Assembly: GCA_000004985.1 (NCBI GenBank)
Contig: GG738847.1
Source of the DNA: Naegleria gruberi
Lineage: Eukaryota
Direction: 5' to 3' (one strand)
Length of the DNA: 64,000 nt
Position 1 is the first letter of the stretch. Each line of letters opens with the position of its first letter. Shown in pieces: positions 4,616-64,000 of the stretch. The translations under genes and the position numbers were made by a program. Under the pieces are notes generated by a model that was not told the origin of the DNA, ran no database searches, and saw only the letters and a program-made list of their open reading frames with translations.

Positions 4616-5920
4616 TTAAAAATCAACTGATTCCATACTTAAAACTCCTCGACTAATGCAAACTGAGTAAATCTTTGAATTGGTTGAAGCAGCTATTGCA
4701 CAATCTTCAACACCCTCAATCTTTGATGAAATCTGCTTATTTACCTGCCCTGCACTATTAACCAACACATAATCTTGAATTCTGGAAACTGAAATTCCAT
4801 TTCCAAGAGCTGCCAATCCATATCCTCTTGTTGCAAAATTATAATTTTTCTGAATTTCAATATTTCCAATATTGTCTGCCTTTGAAGTAATGCCAATTAA
4901 ATTTGGAATAGCTTTTGCATCAGAGCACACAATTCGAATATCAAACACAAAGTTATTCGAATCTAGTTTGGTCACATTAGCTGTTGGACTTGCACAATTT
5001 CCATGTTGTGCCACCCAAGGATTGAACAATATAACAGATTGCTTTCCAAAACTCTTTTCAACATTGATAACACTCAAATAATCACCACCTGAAACTATTG
5101 TTTGAACACTTGCAGCTGCTATCCATCCTGGAATTCCCAAATAACTCATTGACACGATGGTATATTCCTGATTGGAAAATATTGGACTAGTTGGTTGACC
5201 TGTCAAAACTCTTAATCTAAAAACATAATTTTGACCTCCAATGTAGATCATATCATTTCCATCCCCATATTCATTTGGTACCAGAAGCATGCTACCTGTT
5301 TCCATCACTATTCTATTGTTAACTTGCCAAACAATTTCCAAGCTTGACAATTTCACACCAATAATTTGATCGGTTGAAATAATTACTAAAATGTCATGTC
5401 TTTCAGAGTATGCAGTATCCCAAACAGATCCATCTTGGAGCATTTTCAAAACTCTGAATTCAGCTTTGAAATTATTCAAAGTGTCAAACTTTACAATAAT
5501 TGGGAATGTGTAATTGAGTGTCAAAACATTGACATATACTTCAGAAGATGTCAAAATAGATTGTGTTAACTCTGATGCGGATACGGATGCAGGTAACCCT
5601 GGAAATTCAGTGATTCTAGTTGAAAGACCAGTTTGTAAATCAACCTGAACTATTTTAACAGCATTTTTCATATCAGAAACTAAACTAAAGGCCTTTCCTT
5701 GCTTGGAAGAAAACACAAGTGATTGCTTGAAATCGCCAAAATAAACATCACCACAACCAGCACAAATATTGGCATTCTCCCAATTTGCATGCGATTTGCG
5801 AAAATTAAATTTGTTTGTTCTGAACTCATCAAATTTTTGTTGTGGCCATTGGCAGTTGACAAGTGTCAACAAGAGATGGAGAATAACACAAAGCACTAGA
5901 GTGTTTTTACTTGCTGACAT
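4616..5920 (-). CDS. Secreted hypothetical protein (434 aa) with N-terminal signal peptide
   Basis: Single ORF with ATG at 5920 after an A-run. Signal peptide MSASKNTLVLCVILHLLLTLVNC, several N-glyco sequons, no TM. No recognisable catalytic motif. Confidence 0.55.
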   Translation of the reverse strand: MSASKNTLVLCVILHLLLTLVNCQWPQQKFDEFRTNKFNFRKSHANWENANICAGCGDVYFGDFKQSLVFSSKQGKAFSLVSDMKNAVKIVQVDLQTGLSTRITEFPGLPASVSASELTQSILTSSEVYVNVLTLNYTFPIIVKFDTLNNFKAEFRVLKMLQDGSVWDTAYSERHDILVIISTDQIIGVKLSSLEIVWQVNNRIVMETGSMLLVPNEYGDGNDMIYIGGQNYVFRLRVLTGQPTSPIFSNQEYTIVSMSYLGIPGWIAAASVQTIVSGGDYLSVINVEKSFGKQSVILFNPWVAQHGNCASPTANVTKLDSNNFVFDIRIVCSDAKAIPNLIGITSKADNIGNIEIQKNYNFATRGYGLAALGNGISVSRIQDYVLVNSAGQVNKQISSKIEGVEDCAIAASTNSKIYSVCISRGVLSMESVDF

Positions 5921-8880: not shown

Positions 8881-10302
8881 TTACCATTCCAAAGATCTTT
8901 TGGATAGAGATTTCAAAGTTGGACTATTTTCAGAGTAGAATTGCGAATACCATCTTCTAAATTGACCTATTGGTCCATCAGTTCTCACCAACACTGGCTT
9001 TGGAAGATAGGTTTTGGTATTCCAAATTGGAATGTCTTGTTCCACAAAGGAGGTCATCAAGATTAAAAACCACTTGGCAAAGAATCTAGGAATATACCAA
9101 GGAACATAGAGAACATGTTCAACATGTTGATGAAGAGGGCCAACTGGAGTTACGGTCTGAACGAGATCAAACTTTCCTAAAATTGTAGAAAACTCAAACA
9201 TGACCAAACCAGGTCCATATTGACCTCCCTTTACATCCACAACACTGAATGGAATTTTCAACCTATCATTCATGGCAGTTGAAACGTGTTGAACTTGAAA
9301 GTAAGCCACATGGGAATCTTCCTTCTTTTCACCTTTTTGCCACTTGGCTCCCCAAATATTCCACACAAATCCAAAAGTATTTCTCATTTCTCTATGGACA
9401 ACATTTAAATGATTGGCATCTGGTCCATTCTCTGGAATTTCCTGAATATGACAATAGATGTGATGAGCAATCTTTCCATGTGTGAAGAGATTTTGTCTTA
9501 CTGATGGTGGTTGCCAATGAGGTTCACGACCCTCTGCATCAAACCACAAATAGACGTTATCATTTCTTTCAATAATTGTATAACTCTTGGTGTGGGCTTG
9601 TGATGGAATGCCATCTCTATGTTCACACTCTTCCACTTGTTCACAAGATTCAGCCAATTTTCCACTCTTGTTTTTTGCAATATCAAGAGTTGAATCTTGA
9701 ACAGATAGCTCACTTTTGAATTGACCATTCTTTTTCAAAATTGGCATTGGAAGTGGAGAATCACCAACGGAAACACATTTTCCCTCTCCATTGAATGACC
9801 AATGATGAAATGGACATGTCAAACATTCACCATTGACACTTCCCAATGACAGATTAGCTCCCAAATGAGTACAGTAAGCATCGATAGCATGAACTGTTTT
9901 GGAATGTTGAGCTCTATAGACAGCTAGTTCTAGACCTAACATGCTCTTGTAGATTACTTGTCCAGGGGAAAGATCCCATGAATTGCAGATTTTGAACCAT
10001 CCATTTGGATAAACTGGTGGAAAGTCACCAATTCTCTTTCTACTCTTGGAAGCCAAGAAGGAAGTTCTGGTGGATGGTTTCATTTCGGAAAGTTTAGGTT
10101 CAAGATCAATGAATCTATCAAGAGGATGAAAGAATGAAGAGTAAACTTCCGAAATCAAACTCTTTAATAATTTCCATACAATTGCAAGCACAATAATTGA
10201 AACTCCCAATATGCAAATGTTATTAAAGCTTGTAATATTTTCCACATCAATTGATTGATAAATTTTGGAAAGTGACTGATGGAAGAGAGTTTCGTCTTGC
10301 AT
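8881..10302 (-). CDS. Rieske [2Fe-2S] non-heme-iron oxygenase, Neverland/DAF-36-like (cholesterol 7-desaturase family), N-terminal membrane anchor
   Basis: Rieske motif CTHLGANLSLG..x..CLTCPFHHWSF (CxH-x17-CxxH). Mononuclear iron motif DANHLNVVHREMRN (D-x2-H-x4-H). TM segment ILGVSIIVLAIVWKLL. Confidence 0.75.
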   Translation of the reverse strand: MQDETLFHQSLSKIYQSIDVENITSFNNICILGVSIIVLAIVWKLLKSLISEVYSSFFHPLDRFIDLEPKLSEMKPSTRTSFLASKSRKRIGDFPPVYPNGWFKICNSWDLSPGQVIYKSMLGLELAVYRAQHSKTVHAIDAYCTHLGANLSLGSVNGECLTCPFHHWSFNGEGKCVSVGDSPLPMPILKKNGQFKSELSVQDSTLDIAKNKSGKLAESCEQVEECEHRDGIPSQAHTKSYTIIERNDNVYLWFDAEGREPHWQPPSVRQNLFTHGKIAHHIYCHIQEIPENGPDANHLNVVHREMRNTFGFVWNIWGAKWQKGEKKEDSHVAYFQVQHVSTAMNDRLKIPFSVVDVKGGQYGPGLVMFEFSTILGKFDLVQTVTPVGPLHQHVEHVLYVPWYIPRFFAKWFLILMTSFVEQDIPIWNTKTYLPKPVLVRTDGPIGQFRRWYSQFYSENSPTLKSLSKRSLEW

Positions 10303-10558
10303 TTTGTTTTTTTAATGTTTTTGAAAGCTTATATCCCTTCACTCGGCCATTGCTTTACAACGATAGGAAGTCCTACTTTACAATGTGTTGAGGAGTTACG
10401 ATAAGATCTATAAAAGGAACAGTAAAATCCTGTACATTACAATGAAAAATAATTAACTTCTGACCCCTCTTCATTGTTCCTTGAAATTCAACTTGATATT
10501 GAACTTTAACACTTGACAATATCAACTTCCAACTTCCCAAGCAAGCTCTACAAAAAAA

Positions 10559-11161
10559 ATGTCTCAAAACCTTCTCACGGCTGCCACTACCATGAACAAT
10601 CACGAAGAAGAGCTTGAAGTTCCAGGCTTTTCATGGATTATAGAATCGGAATTGGCTGGTATGAAATTTCCATCCCTTCCCGAACATTACAAAAATTTAA
10701 ATCATCATCACATTGGTTTGGTGATTTGTGTGAATGAGAGGGTAGCTTCCTTTGTTGAACAATTACCTCATTCAGAATATTTTAATTTAATTTCTAAAAA
10801 ATTACAAAAAATAGAAAATTGTGAAGAATTTACTTATAATGTTGGAAAATTGAATATTGCTCATTTTCCTATTAATGATTATGGAGTTCCTAATATGGAA
10901 TTAATGAATGAAATGATAAAATTGGTAGAATATGTGAGAAAGGTGGATTCGAACAGGGGAATTGTTGTGCATTGCATGGCTGGACTTTCTAGGACTGGAA
11001 TGATTCTGGCATGTTTGTTGGTGAGAGTATGGAAAATGACATTTGAGGAGTCAATCAAGTTGGTCAATCAGAAGAGAGGAAGAAATGGTAGAGGAGTAAT
11101 GACTAGCAAGCAAGAAGCATTTGTGGAAGATTTTTCAAAGACTATTCCTAATATTCAATAA
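10559..11161 (+). CDS. Dual-specificity protein phosphatase, DUSP23/VH1-like low-molecular-weight type (200 aa)
   Basis: aaaaaaaATG start. Catalytic CX5R loop VVHCMAGLSRTGMILACLLV. N-terminal FSWIIESELAGMKFP resembles DUSP23 (NFSWVLPGRLAG). Confidence 0.85.
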   Translation: MSQNLLTAATTMNNHEEELEVPGFSWIIESELAGMKFPSLPEHYKNLNHHHIGLVICVNERVASFVEQLPHSEYFNLISKKLQKIENCEEFTYNVGKLNIAHFPINDYGVPNMELMNEMIKLVEYVRKVDSNRGIVVHCMAGLSRTGMILACLLVRVWKMTFEESIKLVNQKRGRNGRGVMTSKQEAFVEDFSKTIPNIQ

Positions 11162-11245
11162 GATTACTATTTTTAAATACTATTTCGAATCTTACTAATT
11201 AAGAGCTAAAAATTTACTTCTTGAATGCGTCGACCGGGAATTGAA

Positions 11246-12029
11246 ATTTCCTTTTTTGGAATTCATTTAACTTTTAATTTTATGATGAAATTATGAATGT
11301 TTTATTTTAATATTATTCATGATGTGAAACATCATGTTGAATTCTGTTCATAATATTTAATTCATGATGTGAAACATCATGTTGAATTATTAACAAATGT
11401 TGTTCTTCAATTTTTAATTGAATGTTGTTCTTTCATTGAATGTTGGAAATATTGGAAAGTTGGAAATAAAAGTTGGAAGTTAGGTAACGGGTTATGGAAT
11501 TACCTAATGTGGAAATTGAATTCAATTTTGAAATTGAATTAATACAATGTTTTTTAAATTATTATTATTTAAATGTATTTCACACATTAATTTTGATAAT
11601 GTAATATTAAAGATATTGATAATTGGGTATAGGGAAACGGAATTTCCTAATTGGGAGTCATCACACAATAAATTAAATTTATTATTTATTCATTGATGAT
11701 GTTCACAAACTTTGAATTAACATATTACATGATGAATCAATTACAAAATTAACATCACTATTATTCTGGGGGCAAAATGAACATTAACCATCGGGTAACG
11801 GAAATTGACACATATACCACTTAATTAACAAATTGAATATTAACCATCGGGTAACGGATTTTAATACATGTATTAGTATGTTGATAATTGGTCGACGCAC
11901 AGAAATTTAAATAAACAGAATTAACAAGAATAAAAGCAAAATCCTACATAAGAGTTGGAGAACGGGAAATGAAATTCCCAAATTGAGAAACACAACATGC
12001 ACAATCACAATAATTCATACTATCAAAAT
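11246..12029. mobile_element. 784-bp non-coding repetitive insertion inside the tRNA-Gly T-loop, flanked by 8-bp target-site duplication (gaattgaa at 11238..11245 and 12030..12037); non-autonomous, no ORF
   Basis: Flanks reconstitute an intact tRNA when the insert plus one octamer copy is removed. Interior contains degenerate ~50-70 bp units carrying near-palindromic cores (ccgggaattgaaatttcc, gaacgggaaatgaaattccc, ggaaacggaatttcc, ggtaacgggttatggaattacc). Also a 20-bp direct repeat attaaccatcgggtaacgga at 11784 and 11841. Termini are attt...aaat. Confidence 0.6.
11315..11388. repeat. Two copies of a 29-bp direct repeat attcatgatgtgaaacatcatgttgaatt (11315..11343 and 11360..11388), each containing the hairpin catgatg-tgaaa-catcatg
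   Basis: Exact direct repeat read from sequence, period 45 bp, inside the insertion element. Followed by short tandem motifs tgaatgttgttct x2 and gttggaa(a)t x3. Confidence 0.8.
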
Positions 12030-12139
12030 GAATTGAACCCGGGTCACGGCGATGGCAACGCCGTATTCTACCACTAAACCATCGACGCTTCTTATTAAGG
12101 TACTAAGGCTCATCAAATTTTATTCAAAATGATGTTTTA

Positions 12140-12838
12140 CTAACCAGATTTTTTACAGAAAATCCATTCCAATCCTTCATACAAATTACTCTCATTATCC
12201 GAATGTAGCACCACCATCGTATTCTCCTTCTCATATTCTTGCTCCATAAACTTCTCCACAAATTGTTTAGCCTCCAATGCACGTACTATATGGTCATTGG
12301 TTCTGTGATCCGAATAAATAACAAATAAAATAGGTCGAAAATTCTTCTTCTTTTCAGGAGGAATGAAAAAATAATCATTTTGCCTTTCCACACTATCATC
12401 ACATTTTGCACGTTTTATCATGTCTTTCAATGAAAACATATAGCCATCGAATACTTGTTCAACAGTTTGTGGCCACAATGAATGAATTCTAATCCAAATC
12501 ACAAGTGCATCTCCTCCTTTAATATAATTCGGATACAAGTATTTAATATGAGTATATTTGGAAACATCTCGATCTTCAATAAAGAAATTTTTAAATTCTG
12601 TTTTATAGATTCGAGATTCTTCTTTTATCGGAGAATGTTCATCTGTGATGTGATTTGATTCATAGAGCAGTTTAGCAATTTCCTTATATCCTTCTGCAGA
12701 TACTCCAGAAAAGGAAAAGACAAAAAACTTTTTCTGTGGTCGCCCTACATAATCATAGATTGAATATAAAAATCGATAGATACTTGATGAATAGAGCATC
12801 TGATCAAATTGTTCCAGCAGATCACTAAAATCCATCAT
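12140..12838 (-). CDS. Hypothetical protein (232 aa), family not recognised
   Basis: Minus ORF. ATG pair at 12838 (MMDFSDLLEQ) after a T/A-rich leader. No TM or signal peptide. Confidence 0.45.
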   Translation of the reverse strand: MMDFSDLLEQFDQMLYSSSIYRFLYSIYDYVGRPQKKFFVFSFSGVSAEGYKEIAKLLYESNHITDEHSPIKEESRIYKTEFKNFFIEDRDVSKYTHIKYLYPNYIKGGDALVIWIRIHSLWPQTVEQVFDGYMFSLKDMIKRAKCDDSVERQNDYFFIPPEKKKNFRPILFVIYSDHRTNDHIVRALEAKQFVEKFMEQEYEKENTMVVLHSDNESNLYEGLEWIFCKKSG

Positions 12839-13216
12839 TTTTTTAATATTTTTAATTTTAAATAAAATATTAATCAAATACTCTCATGCTCTACTTTGCT
12901 TTGGTTCTCTCTAAGTGTCATTCTATTTCTGATCATGAAAATTAAATGTTGAAAAATAGAGTTGATGGTAATGGTTGTAAAATCAGATTCAATTTTAAAA
13001 TGGCGCCTAAATTTTGAATATTTGTTACAATAAAACTGTGAGCCAATCAAAAAGTACCAATTCAGAAGTTCTGGGATAGTTGCTGATGGTTGTGCAACAC
13101 GCGCTAAAAATCCGTGCTCGACTGGAGATTTTGAAAAATGCCTCAACAAACATTTATAATGTCAAATGATAACAGTCAACTGTCCAGTATGTTAAAAAAA
13201 ACAACAACATTAAATA

Positions 13217-48456: not shown

Positions 48457-48528
48457 TCGGGTGTGGTATAGTGGTAGCATTCCAGACTGTCACTCTGGCG
48501 ACCCGGGTTCAATTCCCGGCACTCGAGT
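48457..48528 (+). tRNA. tRNA-Asp (anticodon GTC)
   Basis: TCGGGTGTGGTATAGTGGTAGCATTCCAGACTGTCACTCTGGCGACCCGGGTTCAATTCCCGGCACTCGAG. Anticodon arm CCAGA-CTGTCAC-TCTGG, T-arm CCGGG-TTCAATT-CCCGG. Close to canonical eukaryotic tRNA-Asp. Confidence 0.85.
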
Positions 48529-51269: not shown

Positions 51270-51312
51270 TTTTTGATATTATTGAAGAAAATAAAGATGG
51301 TTAAAAAACAGT

Positions 51313-51366
51313 CCGATGAGACGGAATCGAACCGCCGACCACAGGATGACAGTTGTTCTTGCTACA
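51313..51366 (-). pseudogene. tRNA-Tyr(GTA)-like 3' fragment (anticodon loop to 3' end), followed by an oligo-T Pol III terminator; no 5' half found
   Basis: Minus strand GGACTGTAG-caagaacaactgtc-ATCCTGTGGTCGGCGGTTCGATTCCGTCTCATCGGA matches eukaryotic tRNA-Tyr from the anticodon loop onward (GGACTGTAGATCCTTAGGTCGCTGGTTCGATTCCGGCTCGAAGGA), with a 14-nt intron-like insert after position 37 and TTTTTT downstream. The complementary 5' acceptor CCGATGA and D-arm are absent upstream. Confidence 0.4.
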
Positions 51367-51471
51367 GTCCACTTTTATTGTCAAGAAATCTGTAGGTAGA
51401 GAAGGAAGCCAGGTAAAAAAATAATGAAATGGAATAACAAGAACCCTTCAAAATATGCAACAAACACAATA

Positions 51472-51521
51472 NNNNNNNNNNNNNNNNNNNNNNNNNNNNN
51501 NNNNNNNNNNNNNNNNNNNNN
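51472..51521. other. 50-N scaffold gap
   Basis: Exactly 50 n characters. Confidence 0.99.
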
Positions 51522-52806
51522 GACAGTAAAATCCTGTACATTACAATGAAAAATAATTAACTTCTGACCCCTCTTCATTGTTCCTTGAAATTCAACTTGA
51601 TATTGAACTTTAACACTTGACAATATCAACTTCCAACTTCCCAAGCAAGCTCTACAAAAAAAATGTCTCAAAACCTTCTCACGGCTGCCACTACCATGAA
51701 CAATCACGAAGAAGAGCTTGAAGTTCCAGGCTTTTCATGGATTATAGAATCGGAATTGGCTGGTATGAAATTTCCATCCCTTCCCGAACATTACAAAAAT
51801 TTAAATCATCATCACATTGGTTTGGTGATTTGTGTGAATGAGAGGGTAGCTTCCTTTGTTGAACAATTACCTCATTCAGAATATTTTAATTTAATTTCTA
51901 AAAAATTACAAAAAATAGAAAATTGTGAAGAATTTACTTATAATGTTGGAAAATTGAATATTGCTCATTTTCCTATTAATGATTATGGAGTTCCTAATAT
52001 GGAATTAATGAATGAAATGATAAAATTGGTAGAATATGTGAGAAAGGTGGATTCGAACAGGGGAATTGTTGTGCATTGCATGGCTGGACTTTCTAGGACT
52101 GGAATGATTCTGGCATGTTTGTTGGTGAGAGTATGGAAAATGACATTTGAGGAGTCAATCAAGTTGGTCAATCAGAAGAGAGGAAGAAATGGTAGAGGAG
52201 TAATGACTAGCAAGCAAGAAGCATTTGTGGAAGATTTTTCAAAGACTATTCCTAATATTCAATAAGATTACTATTTTTAAATACTATTTCGAATCTTACT
52301 AATTAAGAGCTAAAAATTTACTTCTTGAATGCGTCGACCGGGAATTGAAATTTCCTTTTTTGGAATTCATTTAACTTTTAATTTTATGATGAAATTATGA
52401 ATGTTTTATTTTAATATTATTCATGATGTGAAACATCATGTTGAATTCTGTTCATAATATTTAATTCATGATGTGAAACATCATGTTGAATTATTAACAA
52501 ATGTTGTTCTTCAATTTTTAATTGAATGTTGTTCTTTCATTGAATGTTGGAAATATTGGAAAGTTGGAAATAAAAGTTGGAAGTTAGGTAACGGGTTATG
52601 GAATTACCTAATGTGGAAATTGAATTCAATTTTGAAATTGAATTAATACAATGTTTTTTAAATTATTATTATTTAAATGTATTTCACACATTAATTTTGA
52701 TAATGTAATATTAAAGATATTGATAATTGGGTATAGGGAAACGGAATTTCCTAATTGGGAGTCATCACACAATAAATTAAATTTATTATTTATTCATTGA
52801 TGATGT
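51522..52806. repeat. Exact duplicate of 10418..11706 (offset 41104), bounded by N gaps
   Basis: Includes the DUSP23-like CDS and the left junction of the insertion element. Identity appears 100% over 1285 bp. The ORF track shows identical proteins at 10559..11161 and 51663..52265. Confidence 0.9.
51663..52265 (+). CDS. Second copy of the DUSP23-like phosphatase CDS (identical to 10559..11161)
   Basis: Identical 200-aa translation; lies within the gap-bounded duplicate block. Confidence 0.6.
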   Translation: MSQNLLTAATTMNNHEEELEVPGFSWIIESELAGMKFPSLPEHYKNLNHHHIGLVICVNERVASFVEQLPHSEYFNLISKKLQKIENCEEFTYNVGKLNIAHFPINDYGVPNMELMNEMIKLVEYVRKVDSNRGIVVHCMAGLSRTGMILACLLVRVWKMTFEESIKLVNQKRGRNGRGVMTSKQEAFVEDFSKTIPNIQ

Positions 52807-55800
52807 NNNNNNNNNNNNNNNNNNNNNNNNNNNNNNNNNNNNNNNNNNNNNNNNNNNNNNNNNNNNNNNNNNNNNNNNNNNNNNNNNNNNNNNNNNNNNN
52901 NNNNNNNNNNNNNNNNNNNNNNNNNNNNNNNNNNNNNNNNNNNNNNNNNNNNNNNNNNNNNNNNNNNNNNNNNNNNNNNNNNNNNNNNNNNNNNNNNNNN
53001 NNNNNNNNNNNNNNNNNNNNNNNNNNNNNNNNNNNNNNNNNNNNNNNNNNNNNNNNNNNNNNNNNNNNNNNNNNNNNNNNNNNNNNNNNNNNNNNNNNNN
53101 NNNNNNNNNNNNNNNNNNNNNNNNNNNNNNNNNNNNNNNNNNNNNNNNNNNNNNNNNNNNNNNNNNNNNNNNNNNNNNNNNNNNNNNNNNNNNNNNNNNN
53201 NNNNNNNNNNNNNNNNNNNNNNNNNNNNNNNNNNNNNNNNNNNNNNNNNNNNNNNNNNNNNNNNNNNNNNNNNNNNNNNNNNNNNNNNNNNNNNNNNNNN
53301 NNNNNNNNNNNNNNNNNNNNNNNNNNNNNNNNNNNNNNNNNNNNNNNNNNNNNNNNNNNNNNNNNNNNNNNNNNNNNNNNNNNNNNNNNNNNNNNNNNNN
53401 NNNNNNNNNNNNNNNNNNNNNNNNNNNNNNNNNNNNNNNNNNNNNNNNNNNNNNNNNNNNNNNNNNNNNNNNNNNNNNNNNNNNNNNNNNNNNNNNNNNN
53501 NNNNNNNNNNNNNNNNNNNNNNNNNNNNNNNNNNNNNNNNNNNNNNNNNNNNNNNNNNNNNNNNNNNNNNNNNNNNNNNNNNNNNNNNNNNNNNNNNNNN
53601 NNNNNNNNNNNNNNNNNNNNNNNNNNNNNNNNNNNNNNNNNNNNNNNNNNNNNNNNNNNNNNNNNNNNNNNNNNNNNNNNNNNNNNNNNNNNNNNNNNNN
53701 NNNNNNNNNNNNNNNNNNNNNNNNNNNNNNNNNNNNNNNNNNNNNNNNNNNNNNNNNNNNNNNNNNNNNNNNNNNNNNNNNNNNNNNNNNNNNNNNNNNN
53801 NNNNNNNNNNNNNNNNNNNNNNNNNNNNNNNNNNNNNNNNNNNNNNNNNNNNNNNNNNNNNNNNNNNNNNNNNNNNNNNNNNNNNNNNNNNNNNNNNNNN
53901 NNNNNNNNNNNNNNNNNNNNNNNNNNNNNNNNNNNNNNNNNNNNNNNNNNNNNNNNNNNNNNNNNNNNNNNNNNNNNNNNNNNNNNNNNNNNNNNNNNNN
54001 NNNNNNNNNNNNNNNNNNNNNNNNNNNNNNNNNNNNNNNNNNNNNNNNNNNNNNNNNNNNNNNNNNNNNNNNNNNNNNNNNNNNNNNNNNNNNNNNNNNN
54101 NNNNNNNNNNNNNNNNNNNNNNNNNNNNNNNNNNNNNNNNNNNNNNNNNNNNNNNNNNNNNNNNNNNNNNNNNNNNNNNNNNNNNNNNNNNNNNNNNNNN
54201 NNNNNNNNNNNNNNNNNNNNNNNNNNNNNNNNNNNNNNNNNNNNNNNNNNNNNNNNNNNNNNNNNNNNNNNNNNNNNNNNNNNNNNNNNNNNNNNNNNNN
54301 NNNNNNNNNNNNNNNNNNNNNNNNNNNNNNNNNNNNNNNNNNNNNNNNNNNNNNNNNNNNNNNNNNNNNNNNNNNNNNNNNNNNNNNNNNNNNNNNNNNN
54401 NNNNNNNNNNNNNNNNNNNNNNNNNNNNNNNNNNNNNNNNNNNNNNNNNNNNNNNNNNNNNNNNNNNNNNNNNNNNNNNNNNNNNNNNNNNNNNNNNNNN
54501 NNNNNNNNNNNNNNNNNNNNNNNNNNNNNNNNNNNNNNNNNNNNNNNNNNNNNNNNNNNNNNNNNNNNNNNNNNNNNNNNNNNNNNNNNNNNNNNNNNNN
54601 NNNNNNNNNNNNNNNNNNNNNNNNNNNNNNNNNNNNNNNNNNNNNNNNNNNNNNNNNNNNNNNNNNNNNNNNNNNNNNNNNNNNNNNNNNNNNNNNNNNN
54701 NNNNNNNNNNNNNNNNNNNNNNNNNNNNNNNNNNNNNNNNNNNNNNNNNNNNNNNNNNNNNNNNNNNNNNNNNNNNNNNNNNNNNNNNNNNNNNNNNNNN
54801 NNNNNNNNNNNNNNNNNNNNNNNNNNNNNNNNNNNNNNNNNNNNNNNNNNNNNNNNNNNNNNNNNNNNNNNNNNNNNNNNNNNNNNNNNNNNNNNNNNNN
54901 NNNNNNNNNNNNNNNNNNNNNNNNNNNNNNNNNNNNNNNNNNNNNNNNNNNNNNNNNNNNNNNNNNNNNNNNNNNNNNNNNNNNNNNNNNNNNNNNNNNN
55001 NNNNNNNNNNNNNNNNNNNNNNNNNNNNNNNNNNNNNNNNNNNNNNNNNNNNNNNNNNNNNNNNNNNNNNNNNNNNNNNNNNNNNNNNNNNNNNNNNNNN
55101 NNNNNNNNNNNNNNNNNNNNNNNNNNNNNNNNNNNNNNNNNNNNNNNNNNNNNNNNNNNNNNNNNNNNNNNNNNNNNNNNNNNNNNNNNNNNNNNNNNNN
55201 NNNNNNNNNNNNNNNNNNNNNNNNNNNNNNNNNNNNNNNNNNNNNNNNNNNNNNNNNNNNNNNNNNNNNNNNNNNNNNNNNNNNNNNNNNNNNNNNNNNN
55301 NNNNNNNNNNNNNNNNNNNNNNNNNNNNNNNNNNNNNNNNNNNNNNNNNNNNNNNNNNNNNNNNNNNNNNNNNNNNNNNNNNNNNNNNNNNNNNNNNNNN
55401 NNNNNNNNNNNNNNNNNNNNNNNNNNNNNNNNNNNNNNNNNNNNNNNNNNNNNNNNNNNNNNNNNNNNNNNNNNNNNNNNNNNNNNNNNNNNNNNNNNNN
55501 NNNNNNNNNNNNNNNNNNNNNNNNNNNNNNNNNNNNNNNNNNNNNNNNNNNNNNNNNNNNNNNNNNNNNNNNNNNNNNNNNNNNNNNNNNNNNNNNNNNN
55601 NNNNNNNNNNNNNNNNNNNNNNNNNNNNNNNNNNNNNNNNNNNNNNNNNNNNNNNNNNNNNNNNNNNNNNNNNNNNNNNNNNNNNNNNNNNNNNNNNNNN
55701 NNNNNNNNNNNNNNNNNNNNNNNNNNNNNNNNNNNNNNNNNNNNNNNNNNNNNNNNNNNNNNNNNNNNNNNNNNNNNNNNNNNNNNNNNNNNNNNNNNNN

Positions 55801-58800
55801 NNNNNNNNNNNNNNNNNNNNNNNNNNNNNNNNNNNNNNNNNNNNNNNNNNNNNNNNNNNNNNNNNNNNNNNNNNNNNNNNNNNNNNNNNNNNNNNNNNNN
55901 NNNNNNNNNNNNNNNNNNNNNNNNNNNNNNNNNNNNNNNNNNNNNNNNNNNNNNNNNNNNNNNNNNNNNNNNNNNNNNNNNNNNNNNNNNNNNNNNNNNN
56001 NNNNNNNNNNNNNNNNNNNNNNNNNNNNNNNNNNNNNNNNNNNNNNNNNNNNNNNNNNNNNNNNNNNNNNNNNNNNNNNNNNNNNNNNNNNNNNNNNNNN
56101 NNNNNNNNNNNNNNNNNNNNNNNNNNNNNNNNNNNNNNNNNNNNNNNNNNNNNNNNNNNNNNNNNNNNNNNNNNNNNNNNNNNNNNNNNNNNNNNNNNNN
56201 NNNNNNNNNNNNNNNNNNNNNNNNNNNNNNNNNNNNNNNNNNNNNNNNNNNNNNNNNNNNNNNNNNNNNNNNNNNNNNNNNNNNNNNNNNNNNNNNNNNN
56301 NNNNNNNNNNNNNNNNNNNNNNNNNNNNNNNNNNNNNNNNNNNNNNNNNNNNNNNNNNNNNNNNNNNNNNNNNNNNNNNNNNNNNNNNNNNNNNNNNNNN
56401 NNNNNNNNNNNNNNNNNNNNNNNNNNNNNNNNNNNNNNNNNNNNNNNNNNNNNNNNNNNNNNNNNNNNNNNNNNNNNNNNNNNNNNNNNNNNNNNNNNNN
56501 NNNNNNNNNNNNNNNNNNNNNNNNNNNNNNNNNNNNNNNNNNNNNNNNNNNNNNNNNNNNNNNNNNNNNNNNNNNNNNNNNNNNNNNNNNNNNNNNNNNN
56601 NNNNNNNNNNNNNNNNNNNNNNNNNNNNNNNNNNNNNNNNNNNNNNNNNNNNNNNNNNNNNNNNNNNNNNNNNNNNNNNNNNNNNNNNNNNNNNNNNNNN
56701 NNNNNNNNNNNNNNNNNNNNNNNNNNNNNNNNNNNNNNNNNNNNNNNNNNNNNNNNNNNNNNNNNNNNNNNNNNNNNNNNNNNNNNNNNNNNNNNNNNNN
56801 NNNNNNNNNNNNNNNNNNNNNNNNNNNNNNNNNNNNNNNNNNNNNNNNNNNNNNNNNNNNNNNNNNNNNNNNNNNNNNNNNNNNNNNNNNNNNNNNNNNN
56901 NNNNNNNNNNNNNNNNNNNNNNNNNNNNNNNNNNNNNNNNNNNNNNNNNNNNNNNNNNNNNNNNNNNNNNNNNNNNNNNNNNNNNNNNNNNNNNNNNNNN
57001 NNNNNNNNNNNNNNNNNNNNNNNNNNNNNNNNNNNNNNNNNNNNNNNNNNNNNNNNNNNNNNNNNNNNNNNNNNNNNNNNNNNNNNNNNNNNNNNNNNNN
57101 NNNNNNNNNNNNNNNNNNNNNNNNNNNNNNNNNNNNNNNNNNNNNNNNNNNNNNNNNNNNNNNNNNNNNNNNNNNNNNNNNNNNNNNNNNNNNNNNNNNN
57201 NNNNNNNNNNNNNNNNNNNNNNNNNNNNNNNNNNNNNNNNNNNNNNNNNNNNNNNNNNNNNNNNNNNNNNNNNNNNNNNNNNNNNNNNNNNNNNNNNNNN
57301 NNNNNNNNNNNNNNNNNNNNNNNNNNNNNNNNNNNNNNNNNNNNNNNNNNNNNNNNNNNNNNNNNNNNNNNNNNNNNNNNNNNNNNNNNNNNNNNNNNNN
57401 NNNNNNNNNNNNNNNNNNNNNNNNNNNNNNNNNNNNNNNNNNNNNNNNNNNNNNNNNNNNNNNNNNNNNNNNNNNNNNNNNNNNNNNNNNNNNNNNNNNN
57501 NNNNNNNNNNNNNNNNNNNNNNNNNNNNNNNNNNNNNNNNNNNNNNNNNNNNNNNNNNNNNNNNNNNNNNNNNNNNNNNNNNNNNNNNNNNNNNNNNNNN
57601 NNNNNNNNNNNNNNNNNNNNNNNNNNNNNNNNNNNNNNNNNNNNNNNNNNNNNNNNNNNNNNNNNNNNNNNNNNNNNNNNNNNNNNNNNNNNNNNNNNNN
57701 NNNNNNNNNNNNNNNNNNNNNNNNNNNNNNNNNNNNNNNNNNNNNNNNNNNNNNNNNNNNNNNNNNNNNNNNNNNNNNNNNNNNNNNNNNNNNNNNNNNN
57801 NNNNNNNNNNNNNNNNNNNNNNNNNNNNNNNNNNNNNNNNNNNNNNNNNNNNNNNNNNNNNNNNNNNNNNNNNNNNNNNNNNNNNNNNNNNNNNNNNNNN
57901 NNNNNNNNNNNNNNNNNNNNNNNNNNNNNNNNNNNNNNNNNNNNNNNNNNNNNNNNNNNNNNNNNNNNNNNNNNNNNNNNNNNNNNNNNNNNNNNNNNNN
58001 NNNNNNNNNNNNNNNNNNNNNNNNNNNNNNNNNNNNNNNNNNNNNNNNNNNNNNNNNNNNNNNNNNNNNNNNNNNNNNNNNNNNNNNNNNNNNNNNNNNN
58101 NNNNNNNNNNNNNNNNNNNNNNNNNNNNNNNNNNNNNNNNNNNNNNNNNNNNNNNNNNNNNNNNNNNNNNNNNNNNNNNNNNNNNNNNNNNNNNNNNNNN
58201 NNNNNNNNNNNNNNNNNNNNNNNNNNNNNNNNNNNNNNNNNNNNNNNNNNNNNNNNNNNNNNNNNNNNNNNNNNNNNNNNNNNNNNNNNNNNNNNNNNNN
58301 NNNNNNNNNNNNNNNNNNNNNNNNNNNNNNNNNNNNNNNNNNNNNNNNNNNNNNNNNNNNNNNNNNNNNNNNNNNNNNNNNNNNNNNNNNNNNNNNNNNN
58401 NNNNNNNNNNNNNNNNNNNNNNNNNNNNNNNNNNNNNNNNNNNNNNNNNNNNNNNNNNNNNNNNNNNNNNNNNNNNNNNNNNNNNNNNNNNNNNNNNNNN
58501 NNNNNNNNNNNNNNNNNNNNNNNNNNNNNNNNNNNNNNNNNNNNNNNNNNNNNNNNNNNNNNNNNNNNNNNNNNNNNNNNNNNNNNNNNNNNNNNNNNNN
58601 NNNNNNNNNNNNNNNNNNNNNNNNNNNNNNNNNNNNNNNNNNNNNNNNNNNNNNNNNNNNNNNNNNNNNNNNNNNNNNNNNNNNNNNNNNNNNNNNNNNN
58701 NNNNNNNNNNNNNNNNNNNNNNNNNNNNNNNNNNNNNNNNNNNNNNNNNNNNNNNNNNNNNNNNNNNNNNNNNNNNNNNNNNNNNNNNNNNNNNNNNNNN

Positions 58801-61800
58801 NNNNNNNNNNNNNNNNNNNNNNNNNNNNNNNNNNNNNNNNNNNNNNNNNNNNNNNNNNNNNNNNNNNNNNNNNNNNNNNNNNNNNNNNNNNNNNNNNNNN
58901 NNNNNNNNNNNNNNNNNNNNNNNNNNNNNNNNNNNNNNNNNNNNNNNNNNNNNNNNNNNNNNNNNNNNNNNNNNNNNNNNNNNNNNNNNNNNNNNNNNNN
59001 NNNNNNNNNNNNNNNNNNNNNNNNNNNNNNNNNNNNNNNNNNNNNNNNNNNNNNNNNNNNNNNNNNNNNNNNNNNNNNNNNNNNNNNNNNNNNNNNNNNN
59101 NNNNNNNNNNNNNNNNNNNNNNNNNNNNNNNNNNNNNNNNNNNNNNNNNNNNNNNNNNNNNNNNNNNNNNNNNNNNNNNNNNNNNNNNNNNNNNNNNNNN
59201 NNNNNNNNNNNNNNNNNNNNNNNNNNNNNNNNNNNNNNNNNNNNNNNNNNNNNNNNNNNNNNNNNNNNNNNNNNNNNNNNNNNNNNNNNNNNNNNNNNNN
59301 NNNNNNNNNNNNNNNNNNNNNNNNNNNNNNNNNNNNNNNNNNNNNNNNNNNNNNNNNNNNNNNNNNNNNNNNNNNNNNNNNNNNNNNNNNNNNNNNNNNN
59401 NNNNNNNNNNNNNNNNNNNNNNNNNNNNNNNNNNNNNNNNNNNNNNNNNNNNNNNNNNNNNNNNNNNNNNNNNNNNNNNNNNNNNNNNNNNNNNNNNNNN
59501 NNNNNNNNNNNNNNNNNNNNNNNNNNNNNNNNNNNNNNNNNNNNNNNNNNNNNNNNNNNNNNNNNNNNNNNNNNNNNNNNNNNNNNNNNNNNNNNNNNNN
59601 NNNNNNNNNNNNNNNNNNNNNNNNNNNNNNNNNNNNNNNNNNNNNNNNNNNNNNNNNNNNNNNNNNNNNNNNNNNNNNNNNNNNNNNNNNNNNNNNNNNN
59701 NNNNNNNNNNNNNNNNNNNNNNNNNNNNNNNNNNNNNNNNNNNNNNNNNNNNNNNNNNNNNNNNNNNNNNNNNNNNNNNNNNNNNNNNNNNNNNNNNNNN
59801 NNNNNNNNNNNNNNNNNNNNNNNNNNNNNNNNNNNNNNNNNNNNNNNNNNNNNNNNNNNNNNNNNNNNNNNNNNNNNNNNNNNNNNNNNNNNNNNNNNNN
59901 NNNNNNNNNNNNNNNNNNNNNNNNNNNNNNNNNNNNNNNNNNNNNNNNNNNNNNNNNNNNNNNNNNNNNNNNNNNNNNNNNNNNNNNNNNNNNNNNNNNN
60001 NNNNNNNNNNNNNNNNNNNNNNNNNNNNNNNNNNNNNNNNNNNNNNNNNNNNNNNNNNNNNNNNNNNNNNNNNNNNNNNNNNNNNNNNNNNNNNNNNNNN
60101 NNNNNNNNNNNNNNNNNNNNNNNNNNNNNNNNNNNNNNNNNNNNNNNNNNNNNNNNNNNNNNNNNNNNNNNNNNNNNNNNNNNNNNNNNNNNNNNNNNNN
60201 NNNNNNNNNNNNNNNNNNNNNNNNNNNNNNNNNNNNNNNNNNNNNNNNNNNNNNNNNNNNNNNNNNNNNNNNNNNNNNNNNNNNNNNNNNNNNNNNNNNN
60301 NNNNNNNNNNNNNNNNNNNNNNNNNNNNNNNNNNNNNNNNNNNNNNNNNNNNNNNNNNNNNNNNNNNNNNNNNNNNNNNNNNNNNNNNNNNNNNNNNNNN
60401 NNNNNNNNNNNNNNNNNNNNNNNNNNNNNNNNNNNNNNNNNNNNNNNNNNNNNNNNNNNNNNNNNNNNNNNNNNNNNNNNNNNNNNNNNNNNNNNNNNNN
60501 NNNNNNNNNNNNNNNNNNNNNNNNNNNNNNNNNNNNNNNNNNNNNNNNNNNNNNNNNNNNNNNNNNNNNNNNNNNNNNNNNNNNNNNNNNNNNNNNNNNN
60601 NNNNNNNNNNNNNNNNNNNNNNNNNNNNNNNNNNNNNNNNNNNNNNNNNNNNNNNNNNNNNNNNNNNNNNNNNNNNNNNNNNNNNNNNNNNNNNNNNNNN
60701 NNNNNNNNNNNNNNNNNNNNNNNNNNNNNNNNNNNNNNNNNNNNNNNNNNNNNNNNNNNNNNNNNNNNNNNNNNNNNNNNNNNNNNNNNNNNNNNNNNNN
60801 NNNNNNNNNNNNNNNNNNNNNNNNNNNNNNNNNNNNNNNNNNNNNNNNNNNNNNNNNNNNNNNNNNNNNNNNNNNNNNNNNNNNNNNNNNNNNNNNNNNN
60901 NNNNNNNNNNNNNNNNNNNNNNNNNNNNNNNNNNNNNNNNNNNNNNNNNNNNNNNNNNNNNNNNNNNNNNNNNNNNNNNNNNNNNNNNNNNNNNNNNNNN
61001 NNNNNNNNNNNNNNNNNNNNNNNNNNNNNNNNNNNNNNNNNNNNNNNNNNNNNNNNNNNNNNNNNNNNNNNNNNNNNNNNNNNNNNNNNNNNNNNNNNNN
61101 NNNNNNNNNNNNNNNNNNNNNNNNNNNNNNNNNNNNNNNNNNNNNNNNNNNNNNNNNNNNNNNNNNNNNNNNNNNNNNNNNNNNNNNNNNNNNNNNNNNN
61201 NNNNNNNNNNNNNNNNNNNNNNNNNNNNNNNNNNNNNNNNNNNNNNNNNNNNNNNNNNNNNNNNNNNNNNNNNNNNNNNNNNNNNNNNNNNNNNNNNNNN
61301 NNNNNNNNNNNNNNNNNNNNNNNNNNNNNNNNNNNNNNNNNNNNNNNNNNNNNNNNNNNNNNNNNNNNNNNNNNNNNNNNNNNNNNNNNNNNNNNNNNNN
61401 NNNNNNNNNNNNNNNNNNNNNNNNNNNNNNNNNNNNNNNNNNNNNNNNNNNNNNNNNNNNNNNNNNNNNNNNNNNNNNNNNNNNNNNNNNNNNNNNNNNN
61501 NNNNNNNNNNNNNNNNNNNNNNNNNNNNNNNNNNNNNNNNNNNNNNNNNNNNNNNNNNNNNNNNNNNNNNNNNNNNNNNNNNNNNNNNNNNNNNNNNNNN
61601 NNNNNNNNNNNNNNNNNNNNNNNNNNNNNNNNNNNNNNNNNNNNNNNNNNNNNNNNNNNNNNNNNNNNNNNNNNNNNNNNNNNNNNNNNNNNNNNNNNNN
61701 NNNNNNNNNNNNNNNNNNNNNNNNNNNNNNNNNNNNNNNNNNNNNNNNNNNNNNNNNNNNNNNNNNNNNNNNNNNNNNNNNNNNNNNNNNNNNNNNNNNN

Positions 61801-64000
61801 NNNNNNNNNNNNNNNNNNNNNNNNNNNNNNNNNNNNNNNNNNNNNNNNNNNNNNNNNNNNNNNNNNNNNNNNNNNNNNNNNNNNNNNNNNNNNNNNNNNN
61901 NNNNNNNNNNNNNNNNNNNNNNNNNNNNNNNNNNNNNNNNNNNNNNNNNNNNNNNNNNNNNNNNNNNNNNNNNNNNNNNNNNNNNNNNNNNNNNNNNNNN
62001 NNNNNNNNNNNNNNNNNNNNNNNNNNNNNNNNNNNNNNNNNNNNNNNNNNNNNNNNNNNNNNNNNNNNNNNNNNNNNNNNNNNNNNNNNNNNNNNNNNNN
62101 NNNNNNNNNNNNNNNNNNNNNNNNNNNNNNNNNNNNNNNNNNNNNNNNNNNNNNNNNNNNNNNNNNNNNNNNNNNNNNNNNNNNNNNNNNNNNNNNNNNN
62201 NNNNNNNNNNNNNNNNNNNNNNNNNNNNNNNNNNNNNNNNNNNNNNNNNNNNNNNNNNNNNNNNNNNNNNNNNNNNNNNNNNNNNNNNNNNNNNNNNNNN
62301 NNNNNNNNNNNNNNNNNNNNNNNNNNNNNNNNNNNNNNNNNNNNNNNNNNNNNNNNNNNNNNNNNNNNNNNNNNNNNNNNNNNNNNNNNNNNNNNNNNNN
62401 NNNNNNNNNNNNNNNNNNNNNNNNNNNNNNNNNNNNNNNNNNNNNNNNNNNNNNNNNNNNNNNNNNNNNNNNNNNNNNNNNNNNNNNNNNNNNNNNNNNN
62501 NNNNNNNNNNNNNNNNNNNNNNNNNNNNNNNNNNNNNNNNNNNNNNNNNNNNNNNNNNNNNNNNNNNNNNNNNNNNNNNNNNNNNNNNNNNNNNNNNNNN
62601 NNNNNNNNNNNNNNNNNNNNNNNNNNNNNNNNNNNNNNNNNNNNNNNNNNNNNNNNNNNNNNNNNNNNNNNNNNNNNNNNNNNNNNNNNNNNNNNNNNNN
62701 NNNNNNNNNNNNNNNNNNNNNNNNNNNNNNNNNNNNNNNNNNNNNNNNNNNNNNNNNNNNNNNNNNNNNNNNNNNNNNNNNNNNNNNNNNNNNNNNNNNN
62801 NNNNNNNNNNNNNNNNNNNNNNNNNNNNNNNNNNNNNNNNNNNNNNNNNNNNNNNNNNNNNNNNNNNNNNNNNNNNNNNNNNNNNNNNNNNNNNNNNNNN
62901 NNNNNNNNNNNNNNNNNNNNNNNNNNNNNNNNNNNNNNNNNNNNNNNNNNNNNNNNNNNNNNNNNNNNNNNNNNNNNNNNNNNNNNNNNNNNNNNNNNNN
63001 NNNNNNNNNNNNNNNNNNNNNNNNNNNNNNNNNNNNNNNNNNNNNNNNNNNNNNNNNNNNNNNNNNNNNNNNNNNNNNNNNNNNNNNNNNNNNNNNNNNN
63101 NNNNNNNNNNNNNNNNNNNNNNNNNNNNNNNNNNNNNNNNNNNNNNNNNNNNNNNNNNNNNNNNNNNNNNNNNNNNNNNNNNNNNNNNNNNNNNNNNNNN
63201 NNNNNNNNNNNNNNNNNNNNNNNNNNNNNNNNNNNNNNNNNNNNNNNNNNNNNNNNNNNNNNNNNNNNNNNNNNNNNNNNNNNNNNNNNNNNNNNNNNNN
63301 NNNNNNNNNNNNNNNNNNNNNNNNNNNNNNNNNNNNNNNNNNNNNNNNNNNNNNNNNNNNNNNNNNNNNNNNNNNNNNNNNNNNNNNNNNNNNNNNNNNN
63401 NNNNNNNNNNNNNNNNNNNNNNNNNNNNNNNNNNNNNNNNNNNNNNNNNNNNNNNNNNNNNNNNNNNNNNNNNNNNNNNNNNNNNNNNNNNNNNNNNNNN
63501 NNNNNNNNNNNNNNNNNNNNNNNNNNNNNNNNNNNNNNNNNNNNNNNNNNNNNNNNNNNNNNNNNNNNNNNNNNNNNNNNNNNNNNNNNNNNNNNNNNNN
63601 NNNNNNNNNNNNNNNNNNNNNNNNNNNNNNNNNNNNNNNNNNNNNNNNNNNNNNNNNNNNNNNNNNNNNNNNNNNNNNNNNNNNNNNNNNNNNNNNNNNN
63701 NNNNNNNNNNNNNNNNNNNNNNNNNNNNNNNNNNNNNNNNNNNNNNNNNNNNNNNNNNNNNNNNNNNNNNNNNNNNNNNNNNNNNNNNNNNNNNNNNNNN
63801 NNNNNNNNNNNNNNNNNNNNNNNNNNNNNNNNNNNNNNNNNNNNNNNNNNNNNNNNNNNNNNNNNNNNNNNNNNNNNNNNNNNNNNNNNNNNNNNNNNNN
63901 NNNNNNNNNNNNNNNNNNNNNNNNNNNNNNNNNNNNNNNNNNNNNNNNNNNNNNNNNNNNNNNNNNNNNNNNNNNNNNNNNNNNNNNNNNNNNNNNNNNN
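52807..64000. other. Assembly gap (11,194 N)
   Basis: Uninterrupted n run to the end of the window. Confidence 0.99.

Follow-up and report, generated by a model that had tools for sequence, protein, structure and literature searches.

Strictly target-specific DNA transposons are rare, and the main example is Dada, whose members insert within tRNA, U1, U6 and 5S genes (PMC3706591, PMC8869645). Elements of this kind bear on how transposable elements (TEs) survive in gene-dense genomes and on site-directed integration. Other elements use tRNA genes as safe havens in compact genomes, including TRE5, TRE3 and DGLT-A of Dictyostelium and Ty1 and Ty3 of yeast; these land at fixed distances up- or downstream and leave the tRNA gene intact (PMC5006619). 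The locus described here, on contig GG738847.1 of the Naegleria gruberi assembly GCA_000004985.1, is comparable to the latter in its association with a tRNA gene, but differs in that a 784-bp non-coding insert in the T-loop appears to destroy a tRNA-Gly(GCC) gene from inside. The whole stretch of DNA analysed, called the window below, is 64,000 nucleotides (nt) long, and all coordinates are counted from its first base.

A tRNA-Gly(GCC) gene split in its T-loop

Read on the minus strand, the gene falls into two parts on either side of the insert (Table 1). The 5′ part contains the acceptor 5′ strand, D-arm, anticodon arm, variable loop, 5′ T-stem strand and T-loop, and it retains the A box and 10 of the 11 B-box bases (GGTTCAATTCa). 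The 5′ half ends GGGTTCAATTC, and the 3′ half begins TTCAATTCCCGG. The octamer TTCAATTC is repeated at the two junctions, identical at eight of eight positions, in the manner of a target-site duplication. It consists of the 7-nt T-loop plus the first base of the 3′ T-stem strand, which correspond to nt 54–61 in standard tRNA numbering and to nt 52–59 of the 71-nt gene; the insertion lies between nt 53 and 54, and the integration point falls exactly at the 5′ edge of the T-loop. Without a duplication, an exact 8-nt overlap at the junctions would have a chance of about 4^-8, and it is therefore not a chance feature. When 11246..12029 and one octamer are removed, the remaining 71 nt form a flawless tRNA-Gly(GCC) cloverleaf in ARAGORN. 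The layout, the 8-bp duplication and the restored tRNA had all been claimed in an initial annotation made from the letters of this DNA, and each was borne out. A run of five T residues, 14 nt downstream of the 3′ half, is the gene's original RNA polymerase III (Pol III) terminator, and the locus was therefore once a normal Pol III gene.

The insert has a G+C content of 25.4%, compared with 30% in the window DNA free of open reading frames (ORFs) and 35% in the window's ORFs. Each of its frames contains 19–28 stop codons under the standard code, and the longest open stretch is 62 codons, or 81 under code 4, in agreement with the earlier statement that it holds no ORF. The accompanying argument, that the insert would have been mobilized in trans because it is non-coding, holds on that basis. 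The idea of an organelle-derived insert (a nuclear mitochondrial DNA segment, or NUMT) was considered, but it is not supported at the level of coding potential, which all frames lack under both code 1 and code 4. An Rfam search of the insert, group I introns included, returned no match at E <= 5.

The ends of the insert read ATTTTG...GGAAAT. The initial annotation had taken attt..aaat as the boundary of the element, a pairing that proved to be statistically empty: as terminal inverted repeats (TIRs), the end-anchored sequences agree at 11 of 20 positions (p ~0.05), and the 60-nt ends, when aligned locally in inverted orientation, do no better than shuffles (p = 0.6). Internally, the insert is a patchwork of short local duplications, with a 56-bp unit present twice, a 45-bp hairpin unit present twice and several units of 17–25 bp. 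The conspicuous motifs all stand in direct orientation, and the element is thus asymmetric. Measured against 20 shuffles only, the RNA fold of the tRNA-sense strand has a z-score of -3.9 and that of the antisense strand a z-score of 0.1; the sense value probably reflects local palindromes on a weakly folding, C/A-rich background.

Software for tRNA detection can mistake the split gene for an intact one. Run on the whole window, ARAGORN reports 12018..12089 on the minus strand as a normal 72-nt tRNA-Gly(GCC); this call is an artefact, in which insert sequence is used as a false 3′ end and paired with the 5′ acceptor strand. When given the split locus as it stands, ARAGORN calls no tRNA, and the locus scores 21.2 bits against an Rfam tRNA gathering score of 29. 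Automated annotation would probably count this pseudogene as functional, and the tRNA gene (tDNA) count of N. gruberi would also include dead copies.

Resemblance between the insert and its target

A second class of evidence comes from the right junction, where the last six bases of the insert (GGAAAT) and the first ten of the adjoining tRNA sequence (TTCAATTCCC) together make up a 16-mer. Near-copies of this 16-mer occur within the insert at 11964..11979, with two mismatches, and at 11632..11647, with three, and the resemblance of these internal copies extends to 25 nt. Two copies with at most three mismatches compare with 0.028 expected from dinucleotide shuffles (p ~0.001), and at the same threshold none was found on either strand of the other 49 kb of the window. 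The junction-like motif points tentatively to a connection between element and target. It is the sole feature that raises the locus above the routine, and it would justify a genome-wide follow-up.

The resemblance to tRNA-Gly is also seen in shorter words. The insert contains 11 10-mers that lie within one mismatch of the tRNA, compared with 1.5 in shuffles, and 0 of 300 shuffles reach 11; the same count is reached by 4 of 285 random genomic windows, which are assumed to be those that overlap the window's other tRNA genes. The word CCGTTACCCG occurs twice in the insert and matches nt 40–49 of the tRNA at nine of ten positions, and CGATGGTT, which is identical to nt 5–12, likewise occurs twice. 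Taken together, the pooled tRNA-like signal is real but modest. A decayed full tRNA copy within the insert was rejected, since nhmmer finds none and only the pooled word count and the junction motif are significant. Both tRNA halves are unmutated and the internal words of the insert are degenerate, and the words therefore came with the insert rather than forming in place. It would thus appear that the insert has been associated with tRNA sequence of this kind in the past, or has an affinity to it.

Table 1. Features of the split tRNA-Gly(GCC) locus and its redundant copy in the window
Feature	Coordinates	Strand	Description
tRNA-Gly(GCC) 5′ part	12030..12088	-	nt 1–59; GCGTCGATGGTTTAGTGGTAGAATACGGCGTTGCCATCGCCGTGACCCGGGTTCAATTC; nhmmer E = 6e-15
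tRNA-Gly 3′ part	11226..11245	-	nt 52–71, 20 nt; TTCAATTCCCGGTCGACGCA; T-loop, 3′ T-stem strand, acceptor 3′ strand, discriminator A
Insert	11246..12029	-	784 bp; G+C 25.4%; no ORF or TIR; at least six runs of four or more T on the tRNA-sense strand
Left octamer copy	12030..12037	-	TTCAATTC; 5′ part/insert junction
Right octamer copy	11238..11245	-	TTCAATTC; insert/3′ part junction
TTTT	12025..12028	-	insert positions 2–5; expected Pol III termination point for a transcript from the tRNA 5′ half
Pol III terminator	11208..11212	-	T5 run, 14 nt downstream of the tRNA 3′ end; the gene's original one
Right-junction copy of 25-nt motif	11236..11260	-	sense TCCAAAAAAGGAAAT/TTCAATTCCC; 15 nt of insert end plus 10 nt of tRNA T-arm
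Internal motif copy M1	11964..11988	-	TCTCAATTTGGGAATTTCATTTCCC; same orientation; ~41 nt from left end; 14/16 against junction core
Internal motif copy M2	11632..11656	-	TCCCAATTAGGAAATTCCGTTTCCC; same orientation; 13/16 against junction core
Inverted exact copy of last 10 nt of tRNA	11890..11899	+	GGTCGACGCA; within insert
56-bp-period unit, two copies	11773..11872	-	holds CCGTTACCCGATGGTTAAT, then TTCAATT or TTCATTT
Perfect hairpin unit, two copies 45 bp apart	11310..11388	+	CATGATG-TGAAA-CATCATG; 65–140 nt from insert right end
Redundant terminal contig	51523..52806	+	after 50-N gap; 1284 bp; 100% identical to 10419..11702

Origin of the insertion

The initial annotation is partly supported by these results, and the account that we favour is that a mobile element, inserting by way of a staggered cut, made a pseudogene of this tRNA-Gly gene, an outcome that we regard as probable. 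An enzyme supplied in trans would make a cut staggered by 8 bp, severing the tRNA-sense strand between G53 and T54 and its complement after C61; the element would be joined to the overhangs, and repair of the gaps would duplicate TTCAATTC. Considering that the insert holds two internal copies of the motif and that its right end forms a third with the T-arm (GGAAAT/TTCAATTCCC), a protein that binds the element might also recognize T-arm-like sequence, which would make insertion biased to, or even specific for, tRNA T-arms. Such a target preference is conceivable, but we would lean against it. Further points speak for a mobile element. Both junctions are short unbroken stretches, of which the right one recurs in a separate contig. 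The insert is also non-coding and set apart from its surroundings by its composition (25% G+C against 30–35%), and its short sub-repeats may be likened to the non-coding parts of many transposons.

The interrupted gene is expected to be a pseudogene because TTTT begins at the second base of the insert and no acceptor stem is available. With the residual A box and 10 of 11 B-box bases, TFIIIC and Pol III might still load, and any transcript would then be a 3′-truncated RNA of ~60 nt, ending at the TTTT of the insert and lacking an acceptor stem. This fate follows from established Pol III terminator biology. N. gruberi carries about 924 tDNAs in 41 Mb, so the loss of one copy should be neutral or at least tolerated (PMC2888827).

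Of the described systems, Dada is the closest. Like Dada, the insert lies in the body of a multicopy small RNA gene, and Dada targets include the tRNA-Gly genes of Perkinsus and medaka. Dada has no TIRs, internally deleted non-autonomous derivatives of it exist, and its sub-terminal repeats recur in the target genes (PMC3706591), much as the insert holds two copies resembling the junction and T-arm. This last likeness is a loose one, given that the motif copies of the insert are direct and do not lie at matching distances from the ends. Differences also occur. Dada duplications are 6–7 bp, and the repeat seen here is 8 bp; it might, however, be of the same kind as the apparent 8-bp repeats of Dada-U1 and Dada-tIA, which the authors read as 6 bp plus two coincident bases (PMC3706591). 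Dada insertions in tRNA genes fall at nt 8–13 (the A box) or in the anticodon stem, with targets of the TGCGC/TAGCTC type, and not in the T-loop (PMC8869645). Moreover, Dada is defined by a DDE transposase with a DxxH motif and N- and C-terminal zinc fingers, and the insert has no ORF. The earlier remark that insertion in a tRNA body is unusual must be qualified, since Dada is a precedent, albeit one that inserts elsewhere in the tRNA and makes duplications of 6–7 bp. By analogy, it is plausible that the insert works like Dada.

Duplications of 8 bp are made by the hAT, P, Merlin and Zisupton superfamilies (PMC8101967, PMC12730594), and a miniature inverted-repeat transposable element (MITE) from one of these would, like the insert, be small, non-coding and non-autonomous. 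However, the insert has no TIRs, and its repeated motifs are all direct. Its termini (ATTTTG/ATTTCC) differ from the YARNG of hAT and the GG of Merlin, and, whichever strand is read, TTCAATTC fits the hAT consensus nTnnnnAn at only one of its two diagnostic positions. The lack of TIRs speaks against a MITE of the classical hAT, P, Merlin or Zisupton type.

A number of observations weigh against a mobile element, or against one with a preference for tRNA. No TIRs and no recognizable terminal signature of the superfamilies with 8-bp duplications are present. The tRNA-like words are too short for nhmmer, which finds no tRNA copy in the insert at E <= 100, and the best single local alignment of tRNA and insert is non-significant. 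Among the 31 ORFs of 150 aa or longer in the window (52 kb), 30 were scanned against Pfam, and no transposase was found. Naegleria is absent from the Dada hosts in Table 1 of PMC3706591, and no host is reported from the Heterolobosea. A word-indexed search with the transposase Dada-tG_PMar (Dataset S1, PMC3706591), which is specific for tRNA-Gly in Perkinsus, returned three Perkinsus proteins only, a result that is uninformative on Naegleria. A single copy of the insert is known, and mobility would thus have to be read from the duplication. Likewise, one random insertion among about 924 tDNAs in 41 Mb is not improbable. Finally, a tRNA-Asp(GTC) gene at 48457..48527 on the plus strand is intact, although it has the same 20-nt stretch of variable loop and T-arm, GACCCGGGTTCAATTCCCGG, as the split tRNA-Gly. 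All that follows is that some potential targets are free of the element, and the tRNA-Asp could be a second type of target for any T-arm-specific element.

Within the window, the insert has no further copy apart from that in the redundant contig. Scans of metagenome and viral collections with insert sequences gave only chance matches in coding DNA, and the hairpin unit had no match in them. The 19-mer CCGTTACCCGATGGTTAAT matches exactly at 4686..4704 of L003, a bacterial metagenome contig of 60% G+C, and an 18-mer of the right junction matches exactly at 1135..1152 of L004, a viral contig with no tRNA there. Both matches lie in coding sequence unrelated to the element and were rejected as copies of it. 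Full-text literature searches brought up no report of tRNA-interrupting elements in Naegleria.

A more ambitious proposal is that the insert belongs to an undescribed family of the Heterolobosea that is TIR-less, non-autonomous and specific for tRNA T-loops, and whose target mimics a motif repeated in the element. The T-arm target of such a family, GACCCGGGTTCAATTCCCGG, would be common to tRNA-Gly(GCC) and tRNA-Asp(GTC). We consider this rather unlikely. If true, it would be the first DNA element specific for small RNA genes to combine a T-loop target with an 8-bp duplication, and it would represent a new superfamily or else a highly diverged relative of Dada. Were T-loop-specific copies to occur genome-wide, the target-site strategy would be extended to a new site and to a distant lineage, that of a discoban protist.

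Another means by which the insert could have arrived is retroposition, that is, as a SINE-like (short interspersed nuclear element) or 5′-truncated non-long-terminal-repeat (non-LTR) element, inserted by target-primed reverse transcription (TPRT) with an 8-bp staggered nick. TPRT duplications are variable in length, 8 bp included, and the elements concerned have no TIRs. Target-specific non-LTR elements in tRNA arrays are known, such as Dewa of the Tx1 clade. The right end of the insert is mildly A-rich in the tRNA sense (CCAAAAAAGGAAAT), but there is no poly(A) or simple-repeat tail. Collinear tRNA-like words at insert positions 132–260 (GCGTCGA, CCGTTACCCG and TTCAATT; CGATGGTT, AGTGGTA and TCAATTTCCG) could be a decayed tRNA-derived head; however, they begin 130 nt from the left end and are 7–10 nt long, the words resembling the A and B boxes are only ~7 nt apart, and neither nhmmer nor Rfam detects a tRNA-like segment. 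In addition, 784 bp is long for a SINE, and the many T4 runs would stop Pol III transcription of the element. We therefore judge retroposition to be improbable.

It is also conceivable that a site-specific tyrosine or serine recombinase, Crypton-like in kind, integrated a circular element carrying the core TTCAATTC by crossover at the T-loop. The 8-bp repeat would then be the crossover region present in both attL and attR, and not a repair duplication. Prokaryotic integrases use just such a geometry, a loop between arms, at tRNA T-loops and anticodon loops, and here the repeat coincides with the 7-nt loop between the inverted T-stem arms CCGGG/CCCGG, as the repeated segment of prokaryotic integrative elements does. 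The lack of TIRs and a shared 8-bp core are both compatible with such an element, and internal motifs that resemble the right junction would be expected of core-type sites. These motifs, however, are attR-like, continuing with CCCG, and not the attP expected. No recombinase gene occurs in the insert or the window, and we know of no eukaryotic recombinase element that targets tRNA T-loops. Prokaryotic integrative elements at tRNA loops encode an integrase and carry a replacement 3′ tRNA end that keeps the gene functional, whereas the insert has neither, does not restore the tRNA 3′ end, and resides in a eukaryote. We think recombinase-mediated integration quite improbable.

A one-off event with no TE involved would require a break in the T-loop with 8-nt staggered ends, followed by fill-in and the capture of filler DNA or template switching. 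As far as the window and the collections reveal, the insert is indeed single-copy, and it has neither TIR nor ORF. Short tRNA-identical stretches in both orientations (the inverted GGTCGACGCA and the two copies of CGATGGTT) and local tandem duplications are typical of templated repair. Yet for most of the 784 bp there is no match in either the flanks or the 52-kb window, and this length is far above the usual size of templated insertions. The clean duplication, eight of eight, is a hallmark of staggered cleavage of the transposase type, and the degenerate copies of the junction-like motif imply an age that precedes the insertion. Break repair is accordingly as poor a candidate as a recombinase.

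Two established classes of element were also rejected. A Helitron would have TC...CTRR ends between a host A and T; however the boundaries are shifted cyclically across the octamer, no such ends result, and more than 65 nt separate the hairpins from the end. A solo LTR would need TG...CA ends, which are lacking, and the duplication is 8 bp.

Misassembly of unrelated tRNA halves, which the initial annotation had named among the things that would refute it, would mean that two loci were joined through a repeat. The redundant 1284-bp contig stops in mid-insert, as an unresolved repeat path can. Nevertheless, 10001..13000 is free of gaps, the halves fit together without error, overlapping by 8 bp, and each junction of tRNA and insert is within read length. 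A mis-join would, moreover, presuppose that two loci carry this element at an identical place in the tRNA, a situation that would itself strengthen the case for a mobile element, and an assembly artefact is therefore very unlikely.

Finally, a functional interrupted gene, with a non-canonical intron in the T-loop or halves joined at the RNA level, can be given almost no credence: non-canonical intron positions and split or permuted tRNA genes do exist in archaea and some algae, and the tRNA-sense strand folds better than shuffles (the antisense strand does not), but the ATTTTG start and at least six T4 runs would prevent Pol III read-through, no Rfam family, group I introns included, matches at E <= 5, the insert lies in the T-loop and not at the canonical intron position 37/38, the 8-nt direct repeat at its boundaries is foreign to bulge-helix-bulge introns, and 784 nt is far over the known sizes of tRNA introns.

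Genomic setting

The window has a G+C content of ~33% and is densely packed with long ORFs. Their products, according to Pfam, are typical of eukaryotes, including an Aquarius helicase, a P4-ATPase, an RGS protein, actin and a WD40 protein. The ORF at 8881..10302 encodes a Rieske-type cholesterol 7-desaturase that is 100% identical over its full length to an NCBI entry of Naegleria gruberi. Judged from this identity and the set of eukaryotic ORFs, the window is N. gruberi nuclear DNA. Homologues of the Rieske-type protein occur in N. lovaniensis (L001) and in a Naegleria-like metagenome contig (L002), where the neighbourhoods are non-syntenic and without tRNA genes.

The split tRNA-Gly is closely flanked by a dual-specificity phosphatase gene at 10559..11161 and by another ORF that ends at 12140; with the insert subtracted, the intergenic space between them would be ~190 bp. 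Just upstream of the tRNA, and overlapping the stop codon of this second neighbour, the 19 nt at 12122..12140 are complementary at 17 of 19 positions to the hairpin units of the insert (11324..11342 and 11369..11387). With a BLAST E-value of ~0.5, this complementarity is probably due to chance in AT-rich DNA.

Sequenced DNA stops at 52806, apparently the end of the scaffold, and is followed by N padding from 52807 to 64000. A gap of 50 N at 51472..51521 precedes the redundant terminal contig, which holds the phosphatase gene, the tRNA 3′ half, the right junction and 457 bp of the insert, in the middle of which it ends. This is probably a redundant or haplotype contig; it could also mark a place where alleles differ in structure, or where the assembly path through a repeat was left unresolved.

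Besides the split tRNA-Gly, the tRNA genes of the window are tRNA-Trp, tRNA-Ala and tRNA-Asp. A tRNA-like 3′ fragment also lies at about 51307..51371 on the minus strand, 100 bp from a contig end. It reads ...GGTCGGCGGTTCGATTCCGTCTCATCGGA followed by T6, with a perfect B box and terminator, and is flanked by a 7-nt direct repeat, GGACTGT. Neither Rfam nor ARAGORN at default settings calls it, and relaxed ARAGORN gives a poor, tRNA-Asp-like fold. The fragment may be another damaged or partial tRNA gene.

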